Source of the DNA: an uncultured Erysipelotrichaceae bacterium
GTDB lineage: Bacteria; Bacillota_I; Bacilli_A; RF39; UBA660
DNA length: 64,000 nt
NCBI GenBank assembly: GCA_902767245.1
Contig: CACXGO010000002.1
Coordinates: 6,343 to 70,342 of the forward strand
Reading direction: 5' to 3'
A program made the position numbers and the translations under genes. Shown here piece by piece: positions 39,224-53,023 of this stretch. A model generated the notes under the pieces. The model was not told the origin of the DNA. It saw only the letters and a list, made by a program, of their open reading frames with translations, and searched no databases. Position 1 is the first letter of the stretch. Every line of letters begins with the position of its first letter.

Positions 39224-39661
39224 ATGAAACTAACTGATATGACAAAAGAAGAACTAAGTTTACTTACTTATGTAGAAATTGCATACCGTTATTTAAAGGA
39301 AAACAAAAAAACTTTGAAAACTCCAGATTTATTTAGAAAAGTATGCGATTTGCTTGGATTTAATGATAGTCAATATGCAAGCAAAATAGGGGACTTTTAT
39401 ACATCTTTAACAATGGATAAAAGATTTATTGTTTTAGATAATAATGAATGGGATTTAAGAGAAAATCATTCAGTTGAAATTGTTTTAGATGATGAAGATG
39501 ATGCTGAAGATATTTCAGAAGAAGAAACAGATGAAGAGCCAGAAGAAGAAACAGATGAAGAATCTTTAGAAAATGTTGACGACTCAATTGATTCGGATTT
39601 AGATGATGAAGACGATTTAGATGATCTTACAATCATTGATGAGGATGAAGAAACAGAATAG
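39224..39661 (+). CDS. rpoE: DNA-directed RNA polymerase delta subunit
   Basis: HARE-HTH-like N-terminus (LSLLTYVEIAYRYL...FYTSLTMDKRFI) and a long Asp/Glu tail. Confidence 0.85.
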   Translation: MKLTDMTKEELSLLTYVEIAYRYLKENKKTLKTPDLFRKVCDLLGFNDSQYASKIGDFYTSLTMDKRFIVLDNNEWDLRENHSVEIVLDDEDDAEDISEEETDEEPEEETDEESLENVDDSIDSDLDDEDDLDDLTIIDEDEETE

Positions 39662-39717: not shown

Positions 39718-39793
39718 GCTGGAATAGCTTAGTTGGTAGAGCAGCTCCCTCGTAAAGAGCAGGTCGTAGGTTCGACTCCTATTTCCAGCACCA
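39718..39793 (+). tRNA. tRNA-Thr (anticodon CGT)
   Basis: Cloverleaf folded by hand: acceptor GCTGGAA/TTCCAGC, anticodon loop CTCGTAA, TPsiC GGTTCGACTCC, encoded CCA. Confidence 0.85.
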
Positions 39794-39796
39794 TTT

Positions 39797-39872
<76 letters not shown>

Positions 39873-39882
39873 TATGAATATG

Positions 39883-39905
39883 AGAACTTTAAAAAGTTCT
39901 TTTTT
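39883..39905 (+). terminator. rho-independent terminator
   Basis: AGAACTT..AAGTTCT followed by T6. Confidence 0.8.
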
Positions 39906-39953
39906 ATTACAAAAAAATCGTGATATAATCTAAGTATATATTGGAGGTATAAA

Positions 39954-40472
39954 ATGAACGATTTAAAAAAGTATAGCGATGAAGAGATAGTAGAACTAAT
40001 AAAAAAAGGTGAAGTAACTGTTGCAGATATTGTGGACTCAGGAATATGCCCTACATGTTTTGATAAGGGAAATAATCATGTCTTATATGGTAATAACGAA
40101 GACAAAATGATTTTTGAAGATGATGATTTTGAATGCTTTTTAGTAGGGAATCCAAGAGCTGAAGGTCATGCTGCTATAAGTACAAAGAAGCATTTTAAAG
40201 ATATGATGGAAATTGATGATGAAATATGCAAAAAAGTGTTTTTATTATCAAAAAAACTGATGATTTTAATAAAAGAAATATACAAAGCAGAAAGTGTATA
40301 TTTGTGTACGATGTGTGATGGACCAATGAATCATTTCCATGTACAATTAATACCTAGATATTCTTTTGAAAAAAGAGGGTCAAAGAATTTTGTAAAACCA
40401 AGATTTGATTATAAAGAAAATAAAGAAAAATTGAATCAATTGCGTGAAAAGATGTTAATAGTAAAAATATAA
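39954..40472 (+). CDS. HIT family protein
   Basis: Histidine triad variant NHFHVQLIPR and GHAAISTKKH. N-terminal CPTC. Confidence 0.65.
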   Translation: MNDLKKYSDEEIVELIKKGEVTVADIVDSGICPTCFDKGNNHVLYGNNEDKMIFEDDDFECFLVGNPRAEGHAAISTKKHFKDMMEIDDEICKKVFLLSKKLMILIKEIYKAESVYLCTMCDGPMNHFHVQLIPRYSFEKRGSKNFVKPRFDYKENKEKLNQLREKMLIVKI

Positions 40473-40564
40473 TTTAATTTTTTAATTTATCTTTATTTTA
40501 TAAGACAATTTTAATTATTCGTGTTATAATTATTACAAATGTTTATTTTATTGGAGGAATTATT

Positions 40565-42976
40565 ATGTATGATTTTCACAAAGTAGAAGAAAAATGGCAG
40601 AAAAAATGGTATGAGGAAAAAAGCTTTAAAGCAATTGATTTTCATCCAACTAAACCAAAATATTATGTTTTGTATGAGTTTTATAACATAAGTGGAAATC
40701 TGCATATGGGTCATATGAAAGGTACTATCCCTGCTGATGCATTATCACGAATGAAAAGACTTCAAGGGTATAATGTTTTATTTCCAATTGGTGGAGATGC
40801 TTTTGGTTTGCCAGCTGAAAATGCAGCTATGAAAACAGGAATTAATCCAGAAGACTTTGTTAGTAACGGGATGAACAAAGTTATGGAGCAATCAAGAAAA
40901 CTTGGACTTTCATTTGACTGGGATCGTACCATTTGTACAAGTGATCCGTCTTATTATAAATGGACACAATGGATTTTTAAAAAATTTTTTGAAAATGGCA
41001 AAGCTTATAAACAAAAAGGAGTTGTAAACTTCTGCCCAAACTGTAAAACTGTCCTTTCAAATGAAGACAGCCAAGGTGGTGAATGTGATCGTTGTCATGG
41101 CAAAGTTATTCAAGAAGAAAGATGGGTTTGGTTCCTTAAAATGAAGGAATACTCGGAAAAGTTGCTTGAAAATGTTGATCGCATTACCATGAATGAAAAC
41201 TTAAAAGAGCTTCAAAGAAATTGGATTGGTAGAAGTGAAGGTATGGAGGTATGTTTTGATATTGTTTCAGAAAGTGGAAAAATAATTGCTGATTCAAAAA
41301 TATTTACAACATGCATTGAAACAATATATGGAATTACATTCTTTGTAATGGCTCCAGAGCATAAGTTAATTGATGATTTAAAGAGTTATATAACAAATTA
41401 TGATGAAGTAAAAGAGTATCAAAAACAAACAGCATATAGAACAGAACTTGATCGAATCAGTGATCAAAAAGATAAAACAGGTTGCAAATTAGAAGGTATT
41501 TCTGCTATTAATCCAATTAATGGAGCAAAAGTACCAATATACATTTCAGATTTTGTTTTAGCTAATTATGGAACTGGAATTGTAATGGCCGTTCCAACTC
41601 ACGATCAAAGAGACTATGAATTTGCTAAAAAATACAATATTCCAATGATTCAAGTAATCGAAGGAGATGTTAGTGAAAAAGCTTATGAAAAATATGACTA
41701 TTTAAAAGAAAATAGCAAAATGATGAATTCAGAAGAATTTACGGGTCTTCCTGTTAAAGAAGCAAAAGAAAAGATTATTGAAAAAGTCATTAAATTAGGT
41801 TTTGGTAAAAAGCAAGTTAATTATAAAATGCAAGATTGGTCATTTAACCGTCAAAGATATTGGGGCGAACCATTCCCTGTTGTGTTCTGTGACAAGTGTG
41901 GTATAGTTGCTATTCCAGACGAAGAGTTACCTTTAACTTTACCAAGAACAAATGATTATATGCCAAATGAAAATGGTAGTTCACCACTTTCAAAAATTGA
42001 TGATTGGGTTAATTGTAAATGTCCAAAATGTGGTGGCGCTGCTAAAAGAGAAACTGACACAATGCCTAACTGGGCTGGATCTTCATGGTATTGGTTAAGA
42101 TATTGTGATCCACATAATGATAAGGCATTAGCTGATTTTGAAAAATTAAAATATTGGGGTAGCGTTGATGTCTATACTGGTGGAACGGAGCATATAACTA
42201 GACATGTACTTTACGCTTTCTTCTGGCAGAATTTCTTATATGAAATAGGTGCTGTACCAACTAGAGATCCATTTATACGTAAAATGGGAAGTGGCCTTAT
42301 TTTAGATGATACTGGTAAAAAAATGAGCAAAAGTTCAGCAAATGGTGTTTCACCGATGGAAGTAATTGAAAAATATGGTACCGATGTTGCTAGACTTCAT
42401 GTTCATTTCTTGGGTGGTTATGAAGACAATACCCCTTGGACATATGATGGTATAAGTGGTATTACTAATTTTATTAATCGTGTATGGGATTTACAAAATA
42501 TAATTAAAGGCGAAGAAGTATCAAAAGAACATATTTATGAAATCAATCAATTAATAAAAAAAGTTACAGATGATATTGAAAACTTAAAATTAAATACAGC
42601 AATAGCTTCTTACATGACATTTTTAAATGTTATTAAAAAAGATGGATTTATAACTAAAGAGGAATTAAAAACTTTCTTGATTTTGCTTAATCCATTGGCA
42701 CCACATATTACAAGTGAACTTTATGAAATTGTATTTGGTGGCAACATAATTGATGATAAATGGCCAGAATACAATGAAAAGTATTTAAATAAAGATGAAA
42801 TTAATTTACCAATTCAAATAAATGGCAAAATGAAAAAAACAATTTTAGTAAGCAAAGAAATTGAAGAAAATGATGTAATGAAAAAAATAAAAGAAGATTA
42901 TCCTGATTTAATTAAAGGCGAAATTGTTAAAATCATTTATGTAAAAGGAAGAATTATTAATATAATTTGCAAATAA
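40565..42976 (+). CDS. leuS: leucine--tRNA ligase
   Basis: Large class I aaRS ORF of 803 aa with a HIGH-like NLHMGH motif, the KMSKS motif, a CP1 editing region and Zn-binding CPNC..CDRC. Confidence 0.95.
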   Translation: MYDFHKVEEKWQKKWYEEKSFKAIDFHPTKPKYYVLYEFYNISGNLHMGHMKGTIPADALSRMKRLQGYNVLFPIGGDAFGLPAENAAMKTGINPEDFVSNGMNKVMEQSRKLGLSFDWDRTICTSDPSYYKWTQWIFKKFFENGKAYKQKGVVNFCPNCKTVLSNEDSQGGECDRCHGKVIQEERWVWFLKMKEYSEKLLENVDRITMNENLKELQRNWIGRSEGMEVCFDIVSESGKIIADSKIFTTCIETIYGITFFVMAPEHKLIDDLKSYITNYDEVKEYQKQTAYRTELDRISDQKDKTGCKLEGISAINPINGAKVPIYISDFVLANYGTGIVMAVPTHDQRDYEFAKKYNIPMIQVIEGDVSEKAYEKYDYLKENSKMMNSEEFTGLPVKEAKEKIIEKVIKLGFGKKQVNYKMQDWSFNRQRYWGEPFPVVFCDKCGIVAIPDEELPLTLPRTNDYMPNENGSSPLSKIDDWVNCKCPKCGGAAKRETDTMPNWAGSSWYWLRYCDPHNDKALADFEKLKYWGSVDVYTGGTEHITRHVLYAFFWQNFLYEIGAVPTRDPFIRKMGSGLILDDTGKKMSKSSANGVSPMEVIEKYGTDVARLHVHFLGGYEDNTPWTYDGISGITNFINRVWDLQNIIKGEEVSKEHIYEINQLIKKVTDDIENLKLNTAIASYMTFLNVIKKDGFITKEELKTFLILLNPLAPHITSELYEIVFGGNIIDDKWPEYNEKYLNKDEINLPIQINGKMKKTILVSKEIEENDVMKKIKEDYPDLIKGEIVKIIYVKGRIINIICK

Positions 42977-43003
42977 AAGTATTTAGTAAAAGTTTTTTGA
43001 TAT
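42977..43003 (+). repeat. upstream copy of a duplicated leuS-terminator/promoter fragment (3' stem arm missing)
   Basis: AAGTATTTAGTAAAA (42977-42991) and TTTTTTGATAT (42993-43003) recur at 43925-43939 and 43949-43959. This copy lacks ACTAAATAC, so no hairpin can form. Confidence 0.8.
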
Positions 43004-43013
43004 CATGAAAATA

Positions 43014-43022
43014 TGATATAAT
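43014..43022 (+). promoter_or_regulatory. extended -10 promoter element TGATATAAT for ORF 43065
   Basis: TGnTATAAT match 42 nt upstream of the ATG. The same 9-mer precedes ORF 52263. Confidence 0.5.
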
Positions 43023-43064
43023 TATATTATCTACAGAAATAGTAGATTTTCAGGAGATTTTTTA

Positions 43065-43925
43065 ATGGAAAAATTGGATAATTGCATAAAAACATGGAAT
43101 TTAATTTTTACTGACACTTTAAAATCTGAAGATTTATGTACAAGAGACTTTAATTTGAGCAAATCAGAAGTTAATTACCAAAACTGTATTAGTTTATATA
43201 ATTTAGTTTATGCATTTAATAAATTGTATTTGGCTTTTAAAAAAGAATATAATGAATTAGAAAAAATAGAGATGGGAAGAAGTATTGAAATAGTGCAATT
43301 TAAGAAGTTTTCTGATGAAGATGGAAAAGAATATCGAACATTGATTATAGATATAGATGAGCCTACTATTATTAATCAACCAGATACTTTACTATATTTA
43401 AGAGATATTGATGGTCAGATGGAAACTTTTGTAACTAACAATTTAAATCCATTTGACAAGAATTACTATTTTAAATATGTAAGCCTTGATAATGAAAAAG
43501 TAAAGAAATATTTAGATTTGTTTGAAAAATATAAATTATTGTTAGAATTATATTATTATTTACGAATGCAACTTGTTTTTGGTGATGGATCAACTATATT
43601 ACAGACAAAGATAAATGATGGAAATAGTAATTTATTTGACAATTTAGAGAATTCTAACATAACAATGGCTAGCTTAGGATGGCTAAGCGCAAATGATGAA
43701 GCAAATATATCTATTCATTTAGGAGATAATTTTGATGTTGATTCAACTAATAGCAGTTTAATTTTAGATGGTGTTAATATGGATACAGATGCCAGCACTT
43801 ATACTAAAATTTTGCAAAGTGTTTATATAAATGGTCAATACTTAAGTGAATATAAAGATAGAAACAAAGATTCTAAGAATGATAATGTAAAGCCATTAAT
43901 GTTTAAATTGTTTGAAAAAATTTAA
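43065..43925 (+). CDS. hypothetical protein (orphan A), weakly similar to ORF 52263..52997
   Basis: 286-aa ORF with a CAGGAG SD. No recognised motif, signal peptide or TM helix. Confidence 0.55.
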   Translation: MEKLDNCIKTWNLIFTDTLKSEDLCTRDFNLSKSEVNYQNCISLYNLVYAFNKLYLAFKKEYNELEKIEMGRSIEIVQFKKFSDEDGKEYRTLIIDIDEPTIINQPDTLLYLRDIDGQMETFVTNNLNPFDKNYYFKYVSLDNEKVKKYLDLFEKYKLLLELYYYLRMQLVFGDGSTILQTKINDGNSNLFDNLENSNITMASLGWLSANDEANISIHLGDNFDVDSTNSSLILDGVNMDTDASTYTKILQSVYINGQYLSEYKDRNKDSKNDNVKPLMFKLFEKI

Positions 43926-43959
43926 AGTATTTAGTAAAAACTAAATACTTTTTTGATAT
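43925..43959 (+). terminator. rho-independent terminator (intact copy of the duplicated element)
   Basis: AGTATTTAGT-AAAA-ACTAAATACT, a 10-bp stem followed by T5. Confidence 0.8.
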
Positions 43960-43981
43960 TTTTTTTAAAATGTAGTATACT
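43953..43981 (+). promoter_or_regulatory. tRNA-Leu promoter
   Basis: TTGATA (43953-43958), 17-nt spacer, TATACT (43976-43981). The tRNA starts at 43993. Confidence 0.6.
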
Positions 43982-43992
43982 TTATGGTGTTT

Positions 43993-44078
43993 GCAAGAAT
44001 GGCGGAATGGTAGACGCGCTACTTTGAGGGGGTAGTGAGCATATGCTCGTGGGAGTTCAAGTCTCCTTTCTTGCACCA
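43993..44078 (+). tRNA. tRNA-Leu (anticodon GAG), class II with long variable arm
   Basis: Acceptor GCAAGAA/TTCTTGC, anticodon stem-loop CTACT-TTGAGGG-GGTAG, variable hairpin GAGCATATGCTC, encoded CCA. Confidence 0.85.
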
Positions 44079-44090
44079 ATGGTATTTTTT

Positions 44091-44115
44091 AGACAAACAT
44101 ATTTTGTCTTTTTTT
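44091..44115 (+). terminator. rho-independent terminator
   Basis: AGACAAA-CATAT-TTTGTCT followed by T6. Confidence 0.8.
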
Positions 44116-44151
44116 ATGCCTTAAATCATATAATGAGTTAGAGGTGAAAAG

Positions 44152-45009
44152 ATGAATCAAACATACACAGTAAAACAAGGTGATACTCTATATGGAATCA
44201 GTAATCAATTTGGTGTAAATGTTAATGAACTTGCAGAATTAAATAATATTCGCGGAAGTTTTTTAAAAATTGGACAGGTTTTAAAAATACCAAATACATC
44301 AGGTACTAATCCAAGCAATATGTTTATTTATACTGTCAAAAAAGGAGATAGTTTATATTCAATTGCTCAAAGATATAATACAACAGTAAAAGCTATTCAA
44401 GAATTGAACTATTTAAAATCAATAAATCTTAGCGTTGGACAACAACTAAGAATTCCAGAACAATATAATAATCAAGAAAATACTTTGCCAAATTTTATTA
44501 ATTATACAGTAAAAAAAGGAGATAGTTTATATTCAATTGCTAGAAATAGCAATGTGACTGTTGATACTTTAATCAAAGATAATAATTTGCAAAATACGGT
44601 TTTAAATATTGGTCAGAATATACGCATACGAGTTCCTGTATCAAGTTCTATTGAAATTGAAGAAGAGTGTTATGGACCAGATTACACTCCACCTGAAAGT
44701 CAAAATGTAACAACATATACAGTAAAGAAAGGAGATAACTTATATAGTATTGCTAGACAATTTAACACAAGTGAAACTGCAATTATGAATTTGAATAACT
44801 TAAAAACAAGTGCTTTAAGTATTGGTCAGATTTTAAAAATACCAGTTACTACAACTATAAATGGAGATCAAACAAAAACTTATATTGTGAAAAAAGGAGA
44901 TAGTTTATACTCGATTGCTAGAAAGTATAATACAACAGTTGATAGTTTAAAAAGAAAGAATAATTTGACTTCTAATTCACTTTCGATTGGTCAAAAATTA
45001 ATAATTTAA
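44152..45009 (+). CDS. protein with five LysM repeats and no signal peptide
   Basis: Five copies of the Y.VKKGD(S/T)LY.IA..(Y/F)N..V..L...N.L.S..L..GQ.L.IP module. Confidence 0.85.
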   Translation: MNQTYTVKQGDTLYGISNQFGVNVNELAELNNIRGSFLKIGQVLKIPNTSGTNPSNMFIYTVKKGDSLYSIAQRYNTTVKAIQELNYLKSINLSVGQQLRIPEQYNNQENTLPNFINYTVKKGDSLYSIARNSNVTVDTLIKDNNLQNTVLNIGQNIRIRVPVSSSIEIEEECYGPDYTPPESQNVTTYTVKKGDNLYSIARQFNTSETAIMNLNNLKTSALSIGQILKIPVTTTINGDQTKTYIVKKGDSLYSIARKYNTTVDSLKRKNNLTSNSLSIGQKLII

Positions 45010-45019
45010 GGAGGAATTC

Positions 45020-45424
45020 ATGAATAATGTTAGTATAAATGATCAAACATTAATTGATTCAAATGAATATAAAGAATTTATGAAAAATAATCCAAGTGTA
45101 GGTTATTTAAATATTCGAGTTAGAGCAGCTAGTGGGGCAATTCCAATTAGTAATTTGAAAGTTGCAGTTAGTACTGTTATAGGCAATAATAATGTTATTT
45201 TTTTTGAAGGCTATAGTGATGCTTCAGGAATAATTGAAACCATTAATTTACCAACACCAAAATTAAACCCTAATGATTTAACAGTCCCTCAAGGAACAGC
45301 TTATAATATTTTAGCAACTTATGTGCCAGATAACATTAGTGAAAATTTTGTGGTTGAAATGTATGAAGATATAAGTGTTGTGCAAAACATTAATATTGCA
45401 CCAGTAAATCCGGAGGAATACTAA
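45020..45424 (+). CDS. small beta-rich protein, carboxypeptidase-regulatory-like fold suspected
   Basis: LNIRVRAASGAIPISNLKVAV......GYSDASGIIETINLP fits the CarboxypepD_reg-type strand pattern. It lies between the LysM and PG-binding genes. Confidence 0.4.
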   Translation: MNNVSINDQTLIDSNEYKEFMKNNPSVGYLNIRVRAASGAIPISNLKVAVSTVIGNNNVIFFEGYSDASGIIETINLPTPKLNPNDLTVPQGTAYNILATYVPDNISENFVVEMYEDISVVQNINIAPVNPEEY

Positions 45425-45425
45425 A

Positions 45426-46766
45426 ATGGCGATTAGATATCCTGTTGTTCCTAGTACAATAACTGTTCATTTGGGAGCACCAGATGAAAATGCCAGAGAT
45501 GTAACAATTCCATTTACGGAATATATTTCAAATGTTGCCGCATCCGAACTCTACCCAACATGGCCAAGAAATGCTTTAATTGCAAATATTTATACAATTA
45601 TTTCTTTTGCGATGAATCGCATATATAACGAATGGTATCGCAGCAAAGGTTACAATTTTGATATTACTTCAGTTCCTGCATATGACCAAACATTTACTTT
45701 AAATCGTTCGACATATAGTAATATAGATAATATTGTTGAAGAAATATTTAATAATTATATTGTTAAAGATAATCAAATTCAACCATATTTTACAACTTAT
45801 TGTGATGGTCGTGTAACTACTTGTGATGGCCTTTCACAGTGGGGAAGTGTAAGTTTAGCTAATCAAGGGAAAACTCCTTTAGAAATTTTAAAATATTATT
45901 ATGGTAATGACATTTCAATTAAGTATGATGCGCCAGTAGGAGACTTATTAGGTGTCTTTCCTGGCAATGTTGCATTAGGAAATGCTGGAAATCCTGTGCT
46001 TGCAATTCAAAGGGATTTAAGAAGAATTAGAAAAAATTATCCAGCTATTCCTGATATAACAAATACCTTAGGTATATATGATGAAGAAACTGAAAATGCT
46101 GTGAAAAAATTCCAAGAAGTTTTTAATTTGCCAGTCACTGGTGTTGTTGATAAAGGTACTTGGTATAAGATAAAGTATGTATATACGAGTGTTAAAAAGC
46201 TTTCCGATTTGTATTCAGAAGGACTAAGTGAAGAAGAAGCAACATTTTTATATACTGATGAAGTAAATTATGGAGATACTGGAATTGAAGTTGAATACAT
46301 ACACTATTTTTTAGATGCTTTGGCATTTTTTGATCCTGATATTCCAAGACTTCCACTTGATTCAATTTATAATAATAATAGCATCACGATGGTAAAAGCT
46401 TTTCAAGAAAAATATAATCTTCCTGTAACTGGTATCTTTACTTATGCTGATTGGATTGTTTTAAGAGATGCATATGACAAAACTTTAGCTAGAGTTCCAA
46501 TTGAATATAAGGATTATGTAAGCGAACTTTATCCAGACTATTTTTTAACAAGAGGAATGACTGGAGATGATGTAAGAAGACTCCAAAAATTTCTACTTGC
46601 AATTTGTAAATATGATAAATCGATTCCAGGAGTAAAAGTTAATGGTATTTTTGATGATTTAACTGAAAAATCTGTCAAAAAGATTCAAGATGATTATGAT
46701 TTTGACATCAATGGTATTGTAGGGCCGCTTTTATGGCGTAAAATAGTAGAACTTTCTAAAAGATAA
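45426..46766 (+). CDS. peptidoglycan-binding protein, SleC-like putative spore cortex-lytic enzyme
   Basis: N-terminal SpoIID/LytB-like stretch (FTEYISNVAASELYPTWPRNALIANIYTIISFA) and three PG_binding_1-type repeats (..FQE.(F/Y)NLPVTG..D..TW..). Confidence 0.5.
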   Translation: MAIRYPVVPSTITVHLGAPDENARDVTIPFTEYISNVAASELYPTWPRNALIANIYTIISFAMNRIYNEWYRSKGYNFDITSVPAYDQTFTLNRSTYSNIDNIVEEIFNNYIVKDNQIQPYFTTYCDGRVTTCDGLSQWGSVSLANQGKTPLEILKYYYGNDISIKYDAPVGDLLGVFPGNVALGNAGNPVLAIQRDLRRIRKNYPAIPDITNTLGIYDEETENAVKKFQEVFNLPVTGVVDKGTWYKIKYVYTSVKKLSDLYSEGLSEEEATFLYTDEVNYGDTGIEVEYIHYFLDALAFFDPDIPRLPLDSIYNNNSITMVKAFQEKYNLPVTGIFTYADWIVLRDAYDKTLARVPIEYKDYVSELYPDYFLTRGMTGDDVRRLQKFLLAICKYDKSIPGVKVNGIFDDLTEKSVKKIQDDYDFDINGIVGPLLWRKIVELSKR

Positions 46767-46791
46767 AATCAATCAATGATTGATTTTTTTT
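46767..46791 (+). terminator. rho-independent terminator
   Basis: AATCAATC-AAT-GATTGATT followed by T6. Confidence 0.75.
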
Positions 46792-46832
46792 AATGTCTAT
46801 ATTATAATAAACACCACTGGAAAGGAGATCTT

Positions 46833-48632
46833 ATGGGAAAAGAAAAATCAAATAAAACTGAAGCTTATGAAAAAATAATTGAATCTCCAGAATTAAAAAG
46901 AGTATTAAGACATTATAAAGTTTTTAATATAGCCTCAAAAACAATTAAAGAAATGTTGATTGAAGCTATTAGATTAACTAAAGAAGAAAATAATAATTAT
47001 GTCCAAACCGTAATATCTTTACTTAATAATAAAATGAAAGAACATATCAAGAATTGTCTTATTGATGAATCATATTTGTTTGAAGTTTTAAATCGATTTA
47101 TTAGTAAGAGTTTTAAAGAAAACTGTTCATCTGATGAATCTAGTTTAAATTTAAAAAAATTCAGTAAATTTCTTGAAAGTATAAATGTAGAGTTAAATCC
47201 GGATTTAATTTTCAATTTGTTGAATAGTAATTCTATATTTAATGCTAATGTAAAATCAATAGTAGAAAAAAAGTTACCATTAATAAAAAAAGTGGGGATT
47301 GAAAAAGTTTTTATAGACTCAAGTATTGCTTTGATTTGTAGCAGTTATTGTATGCCTAAAAATATTGATATTTCGGTTGATGAGATATCTAATCAATCAG
47401 TACCAAATATTGAATCAGAAAATGCTTATTCGGATGACAATATAGGTTACTTAGATCCATTAAAACAATATTTAAATGAAATAATTAAAGTTCCCCTATT
47501 AACAAAAGAAGAAGAATATGAGTTATGCATGCGAATAAAAAATGGTGATGATATAGCTAATAAAAAATTAATAGAAGCTAATTTAAGACTAGTAGTGTCA
47601 ATTGCAAGAAAATATTTAAATAGAGGTATTGAATTTTTAGATTTAATTCAAGAAGGAAATGAAGGCTTGATGATAGCAACAAAAAGATTTGATGCTACTA
47701 AAGGCTTTAAATTTTCAACATATGCAACATGGTGGATTCGTCAATCAATTCTGAGAGCATTAGCTGAAAAAAGTCGTAACATCAGACTTCCTGTTTATTT
47801 GACTGAAAAAATTAACTTTATAAATCGTACAAAATCATATTTAACAAATAAGTTAAATCGCGAACCTACTTTAGGAGAAATAGCAGAGTATACTAAAATG
47901 ACTGAAAGTGAAATTAATGAAATTTTAATGGTTTCTCAAAACACAATAAGTTTAAATCAAACTATAAAAGTTAGTGCTGATAATGATTTTAGTGAGAATG
48001 AACTTGGGGATTTCATTCCTGACGAAAAACAAGAATTTGAAGATAAAGTGTTAAAAAAAGGTCAATATAATGAAATTATTGAAATTATTAAAAGTATTAA
48101 ATCTTTAAATGAACGTGAATTAGAAGTTCTTCTCTTAAGAATAGGTATTGTAGATGGTAAAAAGTGGACTCTTGAAAAATGTGGTCGTAAACTTGGTATC
48201 ACACGTGAAAGAGTAAGACAAATAGAATCACGAGCTCGTAGTAAGATAATAAACTCAAACAAAAGAGGTATACTTATTGAATATGCAGACAATCAATTGG
48301 AAATTATAAAGAAACTAAAAAGTTATAATCCAAATATAATGGCTCATGAAAGAATCTATGAATTTGTGAAGGCTGCTATAGGGAATGATTTATATGCTCG
48401 TATTTTTGGTTTAAGAATGGGCTATGTCGATGGGAATAGGCATTCAATTTATAGTATTTCTCAAATGATTGGAATGAGTTCATCACATATATATGAAATA
48501 TGTAGTAAAGTTTTAACTAGAATAAGTGATTGCACATTTAAGGATGAAATGATTAAACTAGATCCAAATTTAGAAATATTGTTTATAAAAATGAATTTAA
48601 TTGGAAACACAAAAGAATTAAAATTGTCTTAA
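46833..48632 (+). CDS. sigma-70 family (group 1/2-like) RNA polymerase sigma factor with N- and C-terminal extensions
   Basis: Region 1.2 to 4.2 is clear at aa 208-472: DPLKQYLNEI, LIEANLRLVVSIARKY, DLIQEGNEGLM, YATWWIRQSI, LGITRERVRQIESRA. It is flanked by 207 unassigned aa and a 127-aa tail. Confidence 0.8.
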   Translation: MGKEKSNKTEAYEKIIESPELKRVLRHYKVFNIASKTIKEMLIEAIRLTKEENNNYVQTVISLLNNKMKEHIKNCLIDESYLFEVLNRFISKSFKENCSSDESSLNLKKFSKFLESINVELNPDLIFNLLNSNSIFNANVKSIVEKKLPLIKKVGIEKVFIDSSIALICSSYCMPKNIDISVDEISNQSVPNIESENAYSDDNIGYLDPLKQYLNEIIKVPLLTKEEEYELCMRIKNGDDIANKKLIEANLRLVVSIARKYLNRGIEFLDLIQEGNEGLMIATKRFDATKGFKFSTYATWWIRQSILRALAEKSRNIRLPVYLTEKINFINRTKSYLTNKLNREPTLGEIAEYTKMTESEINEILMVSQNTISLNQTIKVSADNDFSENELGDFIPDEKQEFEDKVLKKGQYNEIIEIIKSIKSLNERELEVLLLRIGIVDGKKWTLEKCGRKLGITRERVRQIESRARSKIINSNKRGILIEYADNQLEIIKKLKSYNPNIMAHERIYEFVKAAIGNDLYARIFGLRMGYVDGNRHSIYSISQMIGMSSSHIYEICSKVLTRISDCTFKDEMIKLDPNLEILFIKMNLIGNTKELKLS

Positions 48633-48649
48633 TTTATTTAAAAATAAAG

Positions 48650-48678
48650 ATTGTGAACATCACAATTTTTATTTTTTT
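48650..48678 (+). terminator. rho-independent terminator
   Basis: ATTGTGA-ACA-TCACAAT followed by a T-rich run. Confidence 0.75.
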
Positions 48679-48697
48679 AAAAAACAAACAAATGTTC

Positions 48698-48726
48698 GTG
48701 ACAAATGAATTTTTGTATTGTATAAT
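48698..48726 (+). promoter_or_regulatory. promoter of the radical-SAM / DUF4130 / GroEL-like operon
   Basis: gTGACA (48698-48703), 17-nt spacer, TATAAT (48721-48726). Confidence 0.6.
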
Positions 48727-48742
48727 TAAGATGGTGATGGTT

Positions 48743-49954
48743 ATGAATTTAAAAGAAAAGCTTGAAATACTTGCTGATAGTGCCAAGTATGATGCATCAT
48801 GTTCCTCTAGTGGAAGTACTAGAAATGATAAAGGGTTAGGTAATGTTGCATATTCAGGAATTTGTCATTCATTTGCAAACGATGGAAGATGTATTTCTCT
48901 TTTAAAAATTCTAATGACAAATGCCTGTATCTTTGATTGTAAATATTGTATTAATAGAAAAAGTAACAGTGTTAAAAGAGCTATTTTTACTCCTGAAGAA
49001 ATTTGTGAAATTACAATTAACTTTTATAAAAGAAATTATATAGAAGGTTTATTTTTAAGCTCTGGTATTATTAAAAATCCGGATTATACGATGTCTAAAA
49101 TAATTGAGACAATTTACCTGCTTCGAAATAAGTATCATTTTGCTGGTTATATTCACGCTAAAGCCATACCTGGTGCTAGTGACTATTTAATTAAAAAGTT
49201 AGGTAAACTTGTCGATAGAATGAGTGCTAATATTGAGCTTCCAAGGGACGATTCATTAAAATTACTTGCACCAGATAAAAAACCAGATAAAATTAGTTCA
49301 ATAATGCAAACTGTTAAAGATAACAGAAGTCGAAATTTTGCTCCAGCTGGTCAAAGTACCCAAATGATTATTGGTGCAAGTAAAGAAACAGATTTAGAAA
49401 TACTTTCAAAAAGCGAATCGCTTTATAATAGGTATTCTTTAAAAAGAGTTTTTTATTCAGCTTATATTCCGGTTAATAAAGATAAATTATTACCAAGCAT
49501 AGAAATTCCACCATTAGTACGTGAAAACAGACTTTATCAGGCCGATTGGCTTCTAAGATTCTATGGTTATAAAGTTGATAATTTGTTAGAAGAAAAAAAT
49601 CCCAACTTTAATATTTTACTTGATCCAAAAGCGGATTGGGCTTTAAGACATTTTGAAGAGTTTCCTAAAGAAATAAATAAATCAAGTTATTATGATTTAT
49701 TAAAAGTCCCAGGAATAGGTCCAAAATCTGCTAAAAAAATAATTTCATCAAGAAAAGTTTTTAAGATTGAATTTAATGATTTAAAAAAAATGAGTATTTC
49801 TCTTAAAAGAGCTAAATATTTTATTACTTGTAATGGCAAATTTTATATTAATATGGGTTTATTTCAAAAAAAGTTTGTAGAAAGCAGCTTATTATTAGAA
49901 ACTAAAAAAGATGTTTCAAATAATAAAGAACAACTAAGATTAACTTATGAGTAA
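48743..49954 (+). CDS. putative DNA modification/repair radical SAM protein (TIGR03916-like)
   Basis: LADSAKYDASCSSSGS, GICHSFANDGRCISLLKILMTNACIFDCKYCINR, RNYIEGLFLSSG and GYIHAKAIPG follow the family signature. ATG 48743 follows GGTGATGG. Confidence 0.8.
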   Translation: MNLKEKLEILADSAKYDASCSSSGSTRNDKGLGNVAYSGICHSFANDGRCISLLKILMTNACIFDCKYCINRKSNSVKRAIFTPEEICEITINFYKRNYIEGLFLSSGIIKNPDYTMSKIIETIYLLRNKYHFAGYIHAKAIPGASDYLIKKLGKLVDRMSANIELPRDDSLKLLAPDKKPDKISSIMQTVKDNRSRNFAPAGQSTQMIIGASKETDLEILSKSESLYNRYSLKRVFYSAYIPVNKDKLLPSIEIPPLVRENRLYQADWLLRFYGYKVDNLLEEKNPNFNILLDPKADWALRHFEEFPKEINKSSYYDLLKVPGIGPKSAKKIISSRKVFKIEFNDLKKMSISLKRAKYFITCNGKFYINMGLFQKKFVESSLLLETKKDVSNNKEQLRLTYE

Positions 49955-50684
49955 TATTTATTTGTATAATGGAGATTATTCATCATTGTTAAATTTAATA
50001 ATTGAACTTTTAAAACAAAAAATAAATCCAGATAATATAAAAAACTGTGATTATGAACCAAATTTGTTAGAACAAATAGTTAATTTAAAATTGGATAATA
50101 AAAACAATTTAAAGATTTTAAATAAAATGCCCAAGATCATTTTAAAAAGTATATATTATGTATATTTATCAAATAATGAAAATAAAGAATTGCTTATTTT
50201 TGAGTTTTTAAAATATGCCTTTAAATATAAGGAAGATGTATTTAGATATCGTAATATAGATAGCATCAATGAGGTTATAAAAATTATTAAATATGTTGGT
50301 TCAGAAGCTCACAAGTTAAAAGGATTTTTAAGATTTAAACAAGTTAAAAACTTTTATTATGCTGTTATTGAACCTACCAATAATGTTATTTCTATTTTAG
50401 CCACTCATTTTAAAAAACGTTTAAGTGAAGAATTATGGATTATATATGACAAAAAAAGAAATATATATGCTCTTTATGATTTAAAAAAAGTTATATATTT
50501 AAAAGAAAGTGAATTTAAATCACTTAATTTAGATCTTGATGAAAATGAAAAAAATATTGAAGAATTATGGAAAACATTTTTTAAAACAATTTCTATTAAA
50601 GAAAGAAAAAATTTGAAATGCCAAATGAATTTTATGCCAAAAAAATATTGGAAAAACATGCTTGAAATGGAGGATAGAATATGA
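49947..50684 (+). CDS. TIGR03915-like probable DNA metabolism protein (DUF4130)
   Basis: N-terminus IYLYNGDYSSLLNLI and E.HKLKGFLRF fit the family. It overlaps the radical SAM gene by 8 nt. Confidence 0.7.
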   Translation: MSNIYLYNGDYSSLLNLIIELLKQKINPDNIKNCDYEPNLLEQIVNLKLDNKNNLKILNKMPKIILKSIYYVYLSNNENKELLIFEFLKYAFKYKEDVFRYRNIDSINEVIKIIKYVGSEAHKLKGFLRFKQVKNFYYAVIEPTNNVISILATHFKKRLSEELWIIYDKKRNIYALYDLKKVIYLKESEFKSLNLDLDENEKNIEELWKTFFKTISIKERKNLKCQMNFMPKKYWKNMLEMEDRI

Positions 50685-52210
50685 AGAAGATTATAATGGG
50701 TGAAGAATTAAAAAAAACTATGGAAAATGGAATTCAATTAATAGCTAGTGCAGTTGGATCAACTTTAGGTCCTAAAGGGAATAATGTTTTAATTAATAAA
50801 TATGATACAAGTCCATTTATTACTAATGATGGTGTAACGATTGCATCATCGATAGAAAGTGATGATGCAAGTATTAATACTATCTTGGAAATAGTAAAAG
50901 AAGCATCATTAAAAACTAATGAATTAGTAGGTGACGGAACGACGACGACGATTGTTTTATTAGAAAATATTTTTAAAGAAGGTTTAAATGTAATTAGAAA
51001 TGGTAAAAATCCAATAGTTTTAAAAGAAGAATTGGATAAAACATTAGAAAGTATTTTAGAACTTATAGATAAATATAAGAAAAAACCAACCAAAGAAGAA
51101 TTAATAAATATTGCAAAAACATCATGTAATGATGACGAATTAGGAAAATTTTTGGCAGATATTTTTTTAGATGTAAAAAATAAATACGCAATCAAAATTG
51201 AAGAAAGTAGTACTGAAAAAACATATGTCAAAAAACAAAAAGGTTATATATTTGAATTAGATAATGTTTCTAATGCATATTTTCTTAATAGTAATGAGAT
51301 AGTTTTAAATGATACCAGTATATTGTTATTAAAAGGCTATTTGGATGATTTAGAAGTAATTAATGATTTTATTAATGAATCTTTAGTAAAAAATCAAAAT
51401 TTATTAATTCTAGCTGAAGATGTAAGTGAAGATGTAAAAAACCAAATTCTTTCTTACTATCTTGATTATCAAAAAAATATTTTTTTATTTTTATTACCAG
51501 ATTATATATCAAGGAAATATGCGGTTATTCAAGATCTTATGGCAATAAGTGGTGGTATATTTAAAAGTGTTATGGAATCGATTAGTTATGAAGATTTAGG
51601 TCGAGTTTCTAAAGTAGTAATAAATAAAGATAATATTGCTTTTTCATTTGAACGCAAAATTGATAAGTATGTAAATAAACTAAAAAAAGATTTTGAAGGA
51701 TTAAATGATTATGAAAAAGTATTTATGGCTCAAAGAATTGCTTCGTTAGATTTTGGTATAACAACAATTTATGTTGGTGCTATAACTAAAACAGAAATGA
51801 AAGAAAAGAAAATGCGCATTGAAGATGCAATTAATGCTTTAGACATTGCTAGTCGTGGAGTTTGTTTAGGAGCAGGCATTACATTTTTTAGAATATCTGA
51901 GGAAATAAAATGTGAAAATGATGGATATCAAATTATGATTAATTCTTTAAAGGTGCCAATGCAAAAAATTATGAATAATTGTGGTGAAGATTATGAAAAT
52001 TTAAAAAATGAAATTATTAAAACCAACTATCAAAAAATATATAATTGTAAATTGAGACAATTTGAAAACATCAATAACACAAATATTTTAGATCCTGCTG
52101 AAGTCTTAAAAACGGCTTTAAAGAATGCAGTATCGATAGCATCAATGTTACTTACGACTAATTATTTAATTATTAATGAAAAAAATGTTAAAATTGAAGA
52201 ATATATATAG
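50681..52210 (+). CDS. divergent Cpn60/GroEL-family chaperonin-like ATPase
   Basis: Collinear with GroEL: TLGPKGNNVLI, FITNDGVTIA, LVGDGTTTTIVL, KMRIEDAINAL, ILDPAEVLKTALKNAVSIASMLLTT. It lacks the GGM tail. GGAGGA SD, and the ATG overlaps the upstream stop (ATGA). Confidence 0.7.
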   Translation: MKKIIMGEELKKTMENGIQLIASAVGSTLGPKGNNVLINKYDTSPFITNDGVTIASSIESDDASINTILEIVKEASLKTNELVGDGTTTTIVLLENIFKEGLNVIRNGKNPIVLKEELDKTLESILELIDKYKKKPTKEELINIAKTSCNDDELGKFLADIFLDVKNKYAIKIEESSTEKTYVKKQKGYIFELDNVSNAYFLNSNEIVLNDTSILLLKGYLDDLEVINDFINESLVKNQNLLILAEDVSEDVKNQILSYYLDYQKNIFLFLLPDYISRKYAVIQDLMAISGGIFKSVMESISYEDLGRVSKVVINKDNIAFSFERKIDKYVNKLKKDFEGLNDYEKVFMAQRIASLDFGITTIYVGAITKTEMKEKKMRIEDAINALDIASRGVCLGAGITFFRISEEIKCENDGYQIMINSLKVPMQKIMNNCGEDYENLKNEIIKTNYQKIYNCKLRQFENINNTNILDPAEVLKTALKNAVSIASMLLTTNYLIINEKNVKIEEYI

Positions 52211-52229
52211 ACAATATTTTTGATATTTG

Positions 52230-52238
52230 TGATATAAT
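52230..52238 (+). promoter_or_regulatory. extended -10 promoter element TGATATAAT for ORF 52263
   Basis: TGnTATAAT lies 24 nt upstream of the ATG, preceded by TTTTTGATAT as at ORF 43065. Confidence 0.5.
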
Positions 52239-52262
52239 GTATCTTAATAAAGGAGTAAAAAA

Positions 52263-52997
52263 ATGCAAAAATTAAGAATTGATCAAGAAAAATTAATGCA
52301 AGTAATGTTTGATAAATTTGCTTTAATAAATGATAGCAAAAGAATTGAAGATTTAAATCCTAAAATAAATCAAGTACGCGAAAAATATACTGTTTTAAAT
52401 AGTATTGTTTTTTCAAATCCAAATGATAGAGAATATAGTTCCGTTGAATTTATTAGAAAATTTGATTTTAATGGTTGTAAATACATTGTTATTTGTAAAA
52501 ACATTTGGGAATATATATTTATTAATCTTAATACAGGTCAATGTTTAAGTAAATCAGAAATTTTAAAATCGTTTGATAAGATGTATTTAAAACATTTTTT
52601 TGGAATTTTTACGGATTTTAGATGTTTGCATTTTGATGGAAATATTAAAGCTTTAAATGATTTTTATGAAGCCAATAAAGAAATTTTTAGTTCAAAAAAT
52701 AATATTGATTATACAATCATGCTTGATGAAATAGCAAATATATTTGCTAATTTAAATATTGGATTAAATAATAATAAAACTCAAATATTAGTTAGAGCTC
52801 CAGGAAATAGATTTCTAAATTTACGCCTTATTTTTGATGAGAATCTTGAATTAATAGAATCAAACTATCCATTAAATCCAAGTAGTTATGCAGAAATAAA
52901 AGACATTAAGATTCCTTATGAAGTATTACCAAGTATTTTCTTAACTAGTGAACAGATTGAAAAAGGTAATAGAAAAAGACTTAGTTTATATGAATAA
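52263..52997 (+). CDS. hypothetical protein (orphan B), weakly similar to ORF 43065..43925
   Basis: 244-aa ORF with an AAAGGAG SD and no recognised motif. It ends 26 nt before tRNA-Ser. Confidence 0.55.
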   Translation: MQKLRIDQEKLMQVMFDKFALINDSKRIEDLNPKINQVREKYTVLNSIVFSNPNDREYSSVEFIRKFDFNGCKYIVICKNIWEYIFINLNTGQCLSKSEILKSFDKMYLKHFFGIFTDFRCLHFDGNIKALNDFYEANKEIFSSKNNIDYTIMLDEIANIFANLNIGLNNNKTQILVRAPGNRFLNLRLIFDENLELIESNYPLNPSSYAEIKDIKIPYEVLPSIFLTSEQIEKGNRKRLSLYE

Positions 52998-53023
52998 AAA
53001 AATCTTTACTATTATCTTATAGT

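Follow-up and report, generated by a model that had tools for sequence, protein, structure and literature searches.

A probable mosaic of captured genes between tRNA-Thr(CGT) and tRNA-Leu(GAG) in an uncultured Erysipelotrichaceae bacterium

How does a gene come to lie between leuS and a tRNA-Leu gene, with the same short blocks of sequence following both its own stop codon and that of leuS? The question is raised by a 64,000-nucleotide stretch of DNA, hereafter the window, from an uncultured Erysipelotrichaceae bacterium (GTDB lineage Bacteria; Bacillota_I; Bacilli_A; RF39; UBA660; assembly GCA_902767245.1, contig CACXGO010000002.1, positions 6,343 to 70,342 of the forward strand), and by the open reading frame (ORF) 43065..43925 within it, which we call P0001. 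An original prediction, made from the sequence alone, took P0001 for an orphan gene that had entered an ancestral order of leuS, terminator, promoter and tRNA-Leu. Our analysis points to a different history: with a probability of roughly 60%, P0001 is the right-most piece of a derived 4.2-kb mosaic, and the repeat is a junction duplication from a recombinase-independent event that was followed by one indel. The features at the junctions are listed here; in what follows, genomes are given G numbers, loci L numbers and contigs of the assembly C numbers.

40565..42976, forward strand: leuS, of a xenologous type and the only leuS in the assembly
42976..43003, forward strand: upstream copy of the repeat (16-mer, G, TTTTTTGATAT), without a hairpin
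43014..43022, forward strand: TGATATAAT, predicted extended -10 of P0001; homologs in L020, L022 and L053 likewise have TATGATATAAT upstream
43065..43925, forward strand: P0001 (286 aa), which belongs to an unannotated family with proteins of about 250-290 aa
43924..43959, forward strand: downstream copy of the repeat, with a perfect 12-bp hairpin, an AAAA loop and a T-run, then GATAT
43953..43981, forward strand: TTGATA-17-TATACT, promoter of tRNA-Leu predicted by a consensus scan, with a -10 region TGTAGTATAnT common to the same-genus genome G002
43993..44078, forward strand: tRNA-Leu(GAG), found with ARAGORN and Rfam, the first native element on the right

Both AAAGTATTTAGTAAAA and TTTTTTGATAT are present 3' of the two stop codons. 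After the TAA of leuS come AAGTATTTAGTAAAA (42977-42991), a G (42992) and TTTTTTGATAT (42993-43003); from the last A of the TAA of P0001 run AAGTATTTAGTAAAA (43925-43939), ACTAAATAC (43940-43948) and TTTTTTGATAT (43949-43959). The recurrence of these blocks, as it had been described from the sequence, is exact over 16 nt (42976-42991 = 43924-43939) and 11 nt, and both copies begin within the stop codon of the adjacent gene. It had also been predicted that only the downstream copy forms a terminator hairpin, and RNA folding bears this out: in the downstream copy a perfect stem of 12 bp closes a 4-nt AAAA loop and is followed by a U-run (-12.8 kcal/mol, z -3.3), whereas the upstream copy gives no hairpin (-2.8 kcal/mol, z +0.5). 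As expected of an intrinsic terminator, the stable stem-loop stands directly before the U-run (T6), and equally AT-rich stems are found in other terminator-like hairpins of the window, which has a GC content of 27%. The 9 extra nucleotides of the downstream copy (ACTAAATAC) match the reverse complement of the neighboring left arm exactly, and the indel is therefore readable either as loss of an arm or as creation of one by template switching; arm loss in the upstream copy and template-switch creation in the downstream copy would fit equally well.

The promoter signals proposed for this junction were recovered as well. The TTGATA-17-TATACT promoter ends 12 nt 5' of tRNA-Leu(GAG), and P0001 is preceded by its own predicted extended -10 and by AGGAG 8 nt 5' of its ATG. 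Terminal inverted repeats are absent from the ends of the P0001 cassette. Elsewhere in the window (52215-52240), TTTTTGATAT and then TGATATAAT are likewise found 5' of ORF 52263..52997, which abuts tRNA-Ser(CGA). This ORF was considered as a paralog of P0001 and rejected, the two proteins having no detectable similarity (BLASTP E 0.13).

The 15-mer has two copies only in the whole 1.08-Mb, 26.8% GC assembly, both of them at this locus, and a search of the genome for further copies of the repeat, which the original prediction had proposed, indicates a locus-specific sequence and no genome-wide motif. The split 15+11 arrangement was seen in 0 of 5 simulated genomes and, elsewhere in the real genome, only inside one repetitive region of contig C18. 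Local alignment of the two 3' flanks gives a score of 39; when real 3' flanks from the same genome were paired at random, 15 of 40,000 pairs scored as high (3.75e-4). Among 800 adjacent same-strand gene pairs the flank similarity ranks 3rd-4th, and the two pairs ranked higher are explained by tandem paralogs downstream. Past TTTTTTGATAT, into the promoters, the similarity of the two flanks is not significant, and a scan of viral contigs for the repeat pattern returned no match. We accept the repeat as a real, locus-specific duplication, with a small remainder left to chance plus convergence. Similar terminator-plus-promoter modules occur in the same genome in the 3' flanks of two further adjacent gene pairs (C22:26721/27786 and C21:12683/15065), and these may be further duplicated junctions.

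The history of the locus can be polarized by comparison with relatives. A metagenome scan with a 47-mer of tRNA-Leu(GAG) as the query yielded two contigs syntenic with the window (L030 and L031), and together with the same-genus genome G002 these delimit a block to which leuS and P0001 both belong. Its borders and its left-hand components are as follows.

39718..39793, forward strand: tRNA-Thr(CGT), the last native element on the left, followed by tRNA-Leu(GAG) in relatives
39794..43992, forward strand: derived block of 4,199 bp, absent between tRNA-Thr(CGT) and tRNA-Leu(GAG) in L030, L031 and G002
39797..39872, forward strand: tRNA-Thr(TGT), second copy
39882..39906, forward strand: hairpin and T-run after tRNA-Thr(TGT), -7.1 kcal/mol, z -2.5
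39954..40472, forward strand: HIT-family gene with an HxHxQ motif

In L031, argS (77% identical) is followed by a gene for a 145-aa RNA polymerase delta subunit, the same promoter, tRNA-Thr(CGT), 4 nt and tRNA-Leu(GAG). L030 is syntenic with the window on both flanks: there, the delta gene and tRNA-Thr(CGT) are followed by 5 nt, tRNA-Leu(GAG), a 99-aa ORF and a LysM gene (80% protein identity). In G002 the two tRNA genes are separated by a 137-nt spacer with its own terminator and promoter (L034 1587-1723), of which the -10 region, TGTAGTATAAT, resembles the TGTAGTATACT of the window; ArgRS is 70-77% identical to that of same-genus genomes, and 77% identical in the case of G002. In another genus, G006 has a tRNA-Thr 6 nt before tRNA-Leu(GAG), and in other genera tRNA-Leu(GAG) stands alone with a similar promoter. 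A tRNA-Leu downstream of leuS was not found in any of 12 relatives from the family, in any of four genomes with the leuS type of the window (G182, G019, G245, G269) or at any of three leuS loci on mobile elements. Since the tRNA-Thr and tRNA-Leu genes are adjacent in relatives and the order leuS-tRNA-Leu is not seen there, the block 39794..43992 is derived, and the ancestral order assumed in the original prediction has to be abandoned.

The three genes of the block have a GC content at third codon positions (GC3) of 0.17-0.20, against 0.12-0.15 in their neighbors, and the nucleotide homology of block genes to mobile copies is restricted to the coding parts. As had been noted from the sequence, no recombinase lies nearby: genes within about 5 kb on either side encode no recombinase, relaxase or transposase domain, and no relatives of Mob_Pre, DDE or serine-recombinase genes are found near the block. 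Within the genus the tRNA-Thr(CGT)/tRNA-Leu(GAG) junction is itself variable, with 137 nt in G002 and 4-5 nt in L030 and L031. The distance from tRNA-Leu(GAG) to tRNA-Ser(CGA) is about 1.3 kb in G002 (L034) and about 9 kb in the window (44079-53023), where a LysM operon, a large sigma factor and a radical-SAM/GroEL-like operon are found, so that the interval to the right of the block also differs between the two. On the left, the 145-aa ORF after argS in the window (39224-39661) is likewise an RNA polymerase delta subunit (TIGR04567, 75.9 bits, cut-off 42), with an acidic C-terminal tail.

The product of leuS passes TIGR00396 (bacterial leucine--tRNA ligase) with 833.5 bits against a cut-off of 548.4. 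It is only 42-45% identical to the LeuS type of the same-genus genomes G001 and G002, a type whose members share 59-75% identity, and reaches 44-48% with the second type of other genera (G024, G010, G004, G023), as against 84-86% identity to a clade borne on mobile elements. Within the clade to which the window LeuS belongs, members share 84-95% identity (L023, L027/L058, L028, L059/L060), and their genes are found in varied company: beside Mob_Pre, AAA_25 and HTH genes, followed by a putative T-box-type leader and a second metS (L023); beside genes for a DDE transposase, a Mob_Pre relaxase and a serine recombinase, without TnpV (L027, 85% identical); and among small ORFs (L028). The genome of Ca. 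Onthousia faecigallinarum encodes both types of leuS, with the one of the window type beside transposase, relaxase and recombinase genes, and three genomes of the family that are 93-94% complete (G182, G019, G245), like the 76% complete assembly of the window, hold the window type only. Apart from an identical sequence, the closest LeuS is 86% identical and is found in other contexts. The nucleotide homology of leuS to its mobile relatives stops at the stop codon, which indicates that the gene repeatedly gains new 3' flanks. These comparisons show leuS to be a foreign gene inside the derived block, and the distribution of its clade is that of a xenologous displacement in progress.

To the left of leuS, the tRNA-Thr(TGT) of the block is 99-100% identical to the copy in G001 and G003 and 93% identical to that in G013, where the gene lies in a cluster of the order Val(TAC)-Thr(TGT)-Tyr-Gln-Lys-Leu(TAA). 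In the assembly of the window, contig C41 ends 8 nt into tRNA-Thr(TGT), just after tRNA-Val(TAC), and contig C17 starts inside tRNA-Leu(TAA); with the native cluster broken in the assembly exactly where tRNA-Thr(TGT) begins, the copy in the window is a second one. The HIT gene is foreign too: the HIT genes of relatives share only 31-35% identity with it, whereas more than 2,500 metagenome proteins match it at 75-83%. A homolog with 81% identity is the cargo of a widespread element with serine recombinase, Mob_Pre and TnpV genes (HIT loci L066-L070), together with an AAA_33 kinase, two GNAT acetyltransferases, LysE and an S66 (MccF-like) peptidase, and another homolog adjoins a Y1 transposase. 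The gene set of this element is reminiscent of immunity genes against peptide-nucleotide antibiotics. In the MccH clade of HIT hydrolases, which confer immunity to such antibiotics, the triad is modified to HxHxK and the N-terminal His is lost (PMC7157772); the motif of the window protein is NHFHVQLIP, that is, HxHxQ, and membership of the MccH clade was rejected on these grounds.

P0001 cannot be called an orphan, as it had been in the original prediction. There are 48 homologs in metagenomes at 33-50% identity, and a profile search collected 209 clusters at 50% identity (E <= 1e-3); the family is found in five uncultured Bacilli metagenome-assembled genomes (MAGs) of five GTDB species, from sources that include deer and rabbit. 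The family alignment has the conserved motifs YLDLFEKY, FGDGT and NLGENFGIDYDNC, and a C-terminal extension of P0001 is common to a subgroup, which marks the 3' end of the gene as its own. An AlphaFold2 model (predicted local distance difference test 87.4, predicted template modeling score 0.84) has two helix-plus-sheet modules; a Foldseek search with it gave no match with E <= 1e-3 in PDB or BFVD, template modeling scores being below 0.2. Neither did the sequence of P0001 match Pfam, PHROGs, PADLOC, NCBIfam or PDB, the only library match, NF047774, being rejected at 18.9 bits against a cut-off of 200. Longer family members contain no Pfam domain. No relatives of P0001 were found in phage and plasmid collections (tblastn) or in a scan of viral contigs, nor was the family found in the 40 nearest reference genomes.

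The genomic contexts of P0001 homologs differ throughout: they follow radical-SAM and unknown genes, a UvrD helicase or CoaBC, or stand directly after tRNA-Arg, and in L056 and L057 they adjoin tRNA genes. Several have the same TATGATATAAT upstream. In L020, L022 and L053 the homolog lies 3' of a YhcG-type PD-(D/E)XK nuclease and is the last gene before a duplicated stretch of 175-267 nt (76-86% identical), which in L020 and L053 is the 3' end of comEC. Such a duplication is the hallmark of an islet that has inserted there. The islet of L053 (1930-6090) consists of the nuclease and the P0001 homolog and nothing more, suggesting that these two may be a functional pair; that of L020 (1-6100) additionally carries Bro-N and a SUKH immunity-type gene. 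From the varied contexts and the shared TATGATATAAT upstream, P0001 can be taken as a real, conserved accessory gene of an itinerant kind, moving with its own promoter.

We would read these observations as follows. Between tRNA-Thr(CGT) and tRNA-Leu(GAG) a mosaic would have built up from four units, each under a promoter of its own: the duplicated tRNA-Thr(TGT), the foreign HIT gene, the xenologous leuS and P0001. The 16+11-nt repeat, which brackets only the last unit of the mosaic, would most likely have been left when leuS and P0001 were brought together 5' of the tRNA-Leu promoter in an illegitimate event, independent of any recombinase; the two copies would differ by a single subsequent indel of 8-9 nt, which corresponds to the right hairpin arm. 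No terminator is predicted between leuS and P0001, so that P0001 would be expressed both from its own TGATATAAT promoter and on transcripts reading through from leuS, and the transcripts of both genes would probably end at the single hairpin 43924..43954, the T-tract of which would overlap the -35 of the separate tRNA-Leu promoter.

Several results weigh against this reconstruction. The stem of the downstream hairpin has 2 G-C pairs only, where an intrinsic terminator would have a G+C-rich stem, and a consensus terminator scan, which needs at least three such pairs, gave no match in 42500-44500, the downstream hairpin failing it. TTTTTTGATAT is a common motif with 33 copies in the assembly. 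Taken alone, a 15-mer repeated in direct orientation within 3 kb is no more than chance would give, genomes simulated with a Markov-3 model having about 60 such cases each. At other loci with P0001 homologs there are no comparable short direct repeats, the longest being 11 nt, which shows that the repeat does not belong to the family as such. None of the 3' flanks of leuS relatives and P0001 homologs resembles the repeated sequence, and neither leuS nor P0001 can therefore be named as its source. A strain with leuS directly before tRNA-Leu, that is, an empty site for the 0.95-kb cassette, was not found among the relatives, which have LeuS identities of at most 86% and all have other 3' flanks; with no empty site at strain level, the order of events and the mechanism behind the repeat have to be inferred.

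Among the alternatives, the one that survives best is the insertion of a cassette of about 950 bp into a native leuS-terminator-promoter-tRNA-Leu order, with a target duplication of about 27 nt and subsequent loss of the 9-nt arm from the upstream copy. We regard it as possible but clearly less probable than stepwise assembly of a mosaic. The repeat, the asymmetry of the hairpin and the cassette's own promoter are all consistent with it, and P0001 is indeed itinerant by its distribution and absent from the 40 nearest genomes. The supposed starting point is nevertheless not ancestral, since tRNA-Leu(GAG) follows tRNA-Thr in L030, L031, G002 and G006, leuS itself is foreign, and leuS followed by tRNA-Leu was found in none of the relatives, window-type genomes and mobile-element loci counted above. 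Target duplications of 27-35 nt would also be atypical of any transposase, and no transposase is present. What can be retained of the original prediction on this point is the movement of P0001, perhaps as a cassette; a site empty of the cassette alone was not encountered, and leuS before tRNA-Leu would at most have been an intermediate stage, after the arrival of leuS, which would be compatible with the history that we prefer.

The events may also have taken place in the reverse order, a somewhat weaker candidate. P0001, the hairpin and the tRNA-Leu promoter would then have come first, and HIT-leuS, or leuS, would have been attached 5' of them by illegitimate recombination, in the course of which some of the terminator region of P0001 was copied; or the downstream hairpin would have been made later by a template switch on its left arm. 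The identity of the 9 extra nucleotides with the reverse complement of the adjacent arm is as expected from a quasi-palindrome template switch, the end of leuS homology at the stop codon is in keeping with 3' flanks being acquired anew, and the homologs beside tRNA genes in L056 and L057 offer a precedent for P0001 in such a position. Against it, no relative has P0001 beside tRNA-Leu but lacks leuS, and the evidence does not discriminate the order.

A more specific and rather unlikely proposal concerns function. HIT-leuS, possibly with P0001, could be what is left, after domestication, of a mobile module that came from Tn4451-like elements and gave resistance to natural aminoacyl-adenylate mimics poisoning LeuRS. 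In this module a target-replacement LeuRS would be combined with a HIT enzyme that cleaves nucleotide phosphoramidates; under pressure from such antibiotics, several lineages of gut Bacilli with small genomes would have exchanged their native enzyme for this LeuS. It is in other gut bacteria that the HIT element holds the GNAT, LysE and S66 peptidase genes named above, and a leuS element the second metS. To our knowledge, no resistance phenotype or inhibitor has been described for this LeuS clade.

Less probable again is that no duplication ever took place and that the two blocks are independent AT-rich terminator and promoter elements, alike by chance plus functional convergence. The abundance of chance 15-mer repeats and of TTTTTTGATAT, which is about 2.6 times as frequent as the composition-based estimate of 12-13 copies, would agree with this, as would the similar TTTTTGATAT plus TGATATAAT before ORF 52263. 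The combined 16+11 arrangement, absent from all five simulated genomes, and the alignment score, so rarely matched by real 3' flanks, argue against it, as does the fact that both copies begin inside the stop codons of adjacent genes. Finally, it is very improbable that the contig is chimeric at tRNA genes and that the block lies between tRNA-Thr and tRNA-Leu in no real chromosome: the genome is a 76%-complete MAG and tRNA-Thr(TGT) is the repeat that breaks contig C41, but the sequence recurs in two further assemblies from this population, an 875-kb ENA scaffold and a distinct Logan contig are identical to it across both P0001 junctions, and a contig from another sample (SRR33322345) spans the 3' end of tRNA-Thr(TGT), the HIT gene and the start of leuS with one single-nucleotide polymorphism in the 117 nt compared.

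A mosaic assembled from separate captures can be set beside several known systems. It resembles genomic islets and gene flux at tRNA loci in having foreign genes between and next to tRNA genes, an uninterrupted tRNA pair in relatives and a slight shift in GC3. It differs from such islets in lacking an integrase and, at the distal border, any repeated tRNA 3' end; its left side is occupied by a full-length second tRNA-Thr(TGT), and a short repeat is found only around the last gene. A tRNA-targeting integrative island would bring a tyrosine or serine integrase and a distal tRNA 3'-end repeat, and here there is no integrase and, by eye, no tRNA-Thr fragment in 43926-43992. Horizontal transfer and xenologous displacement of aminoacyl-tRNA synthetase genes are well known, ileS2/mupA being the classic mobile example. 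The locus conforms to this pattern in that its LeuS clade is unrelated to the type of the genus, coexists with the other type in Ca. Onthousia faecigallinarum and is found alone in three nearly complete genomes, and departs from it in that mobility genes are gone from the window.

The gene set of mobilizable transposons of the Tn4451/Tn4453 type (large serine recombinase, TnpV, Mob/Pre relaxase) surrounds the 81% HIT homolog, and the 85% leuS homolog shows a partial likeness, with its serine recombinase, Mob_Pre and DDE transposase and its lack of TnpV; serine recombinase, TnpV and Mob_Pre are all absent from the window itself. With integron cassettes (an ORF and an attC hairpin) P0001 shares the layout of a single ORF directly before an inverted repeat and of sequence repeated at both cassette borders. 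It differs in having its own predicted promoter and no integron integrase nearby; the perfect 12-bp stem with its T-run looks like a terminator, homologs are without the hairpin, and the 15-mer of the hairpin, found only here, is no attC common to neighboring cassettes. Islands in the 3' ends of genes that supply a replacement 3' end, with a prophage-like att duplication, find their likeness in the P0001-homolog loci L020, L022 and L053, whereas the duplication in the window is one of 27-35 nt, non-coding and placed after the stop codon, and the YhcG nuclease partner is absent. An insertion sequence or transposon would bring a transposase, terminal inverted repeats and a short target duplication, and here the transposase and the inverted repeats are absent. 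The locus is a new example of known processes, an ordinary mosaic gene flux, and no new kind of element.

For annotation, a gene flagged as an orphan turns out to be a member of a sizeable unnamed family that moves between genomes, and the confidently modeled fold of the family has no match among solved or viral structures. As regards genome evolution, the locus offers a clear, polarized case of a tRNA operon split by the stepwise capture of single-gene units, each with its own promoter, in a gut bacterium with a reduced genome. The outcome would be an essential synthetase gene of foreign origin that lies inside the insert and has its only terminator in common with an accessory gene. Distinct clades of LeuS and HIT proteins circulate on mobilizable transposons in gut Firmicutes, and native LeuS has been displaced in some lineages; this circulation could point to natural antibiotics that target LeuRS in the gut.

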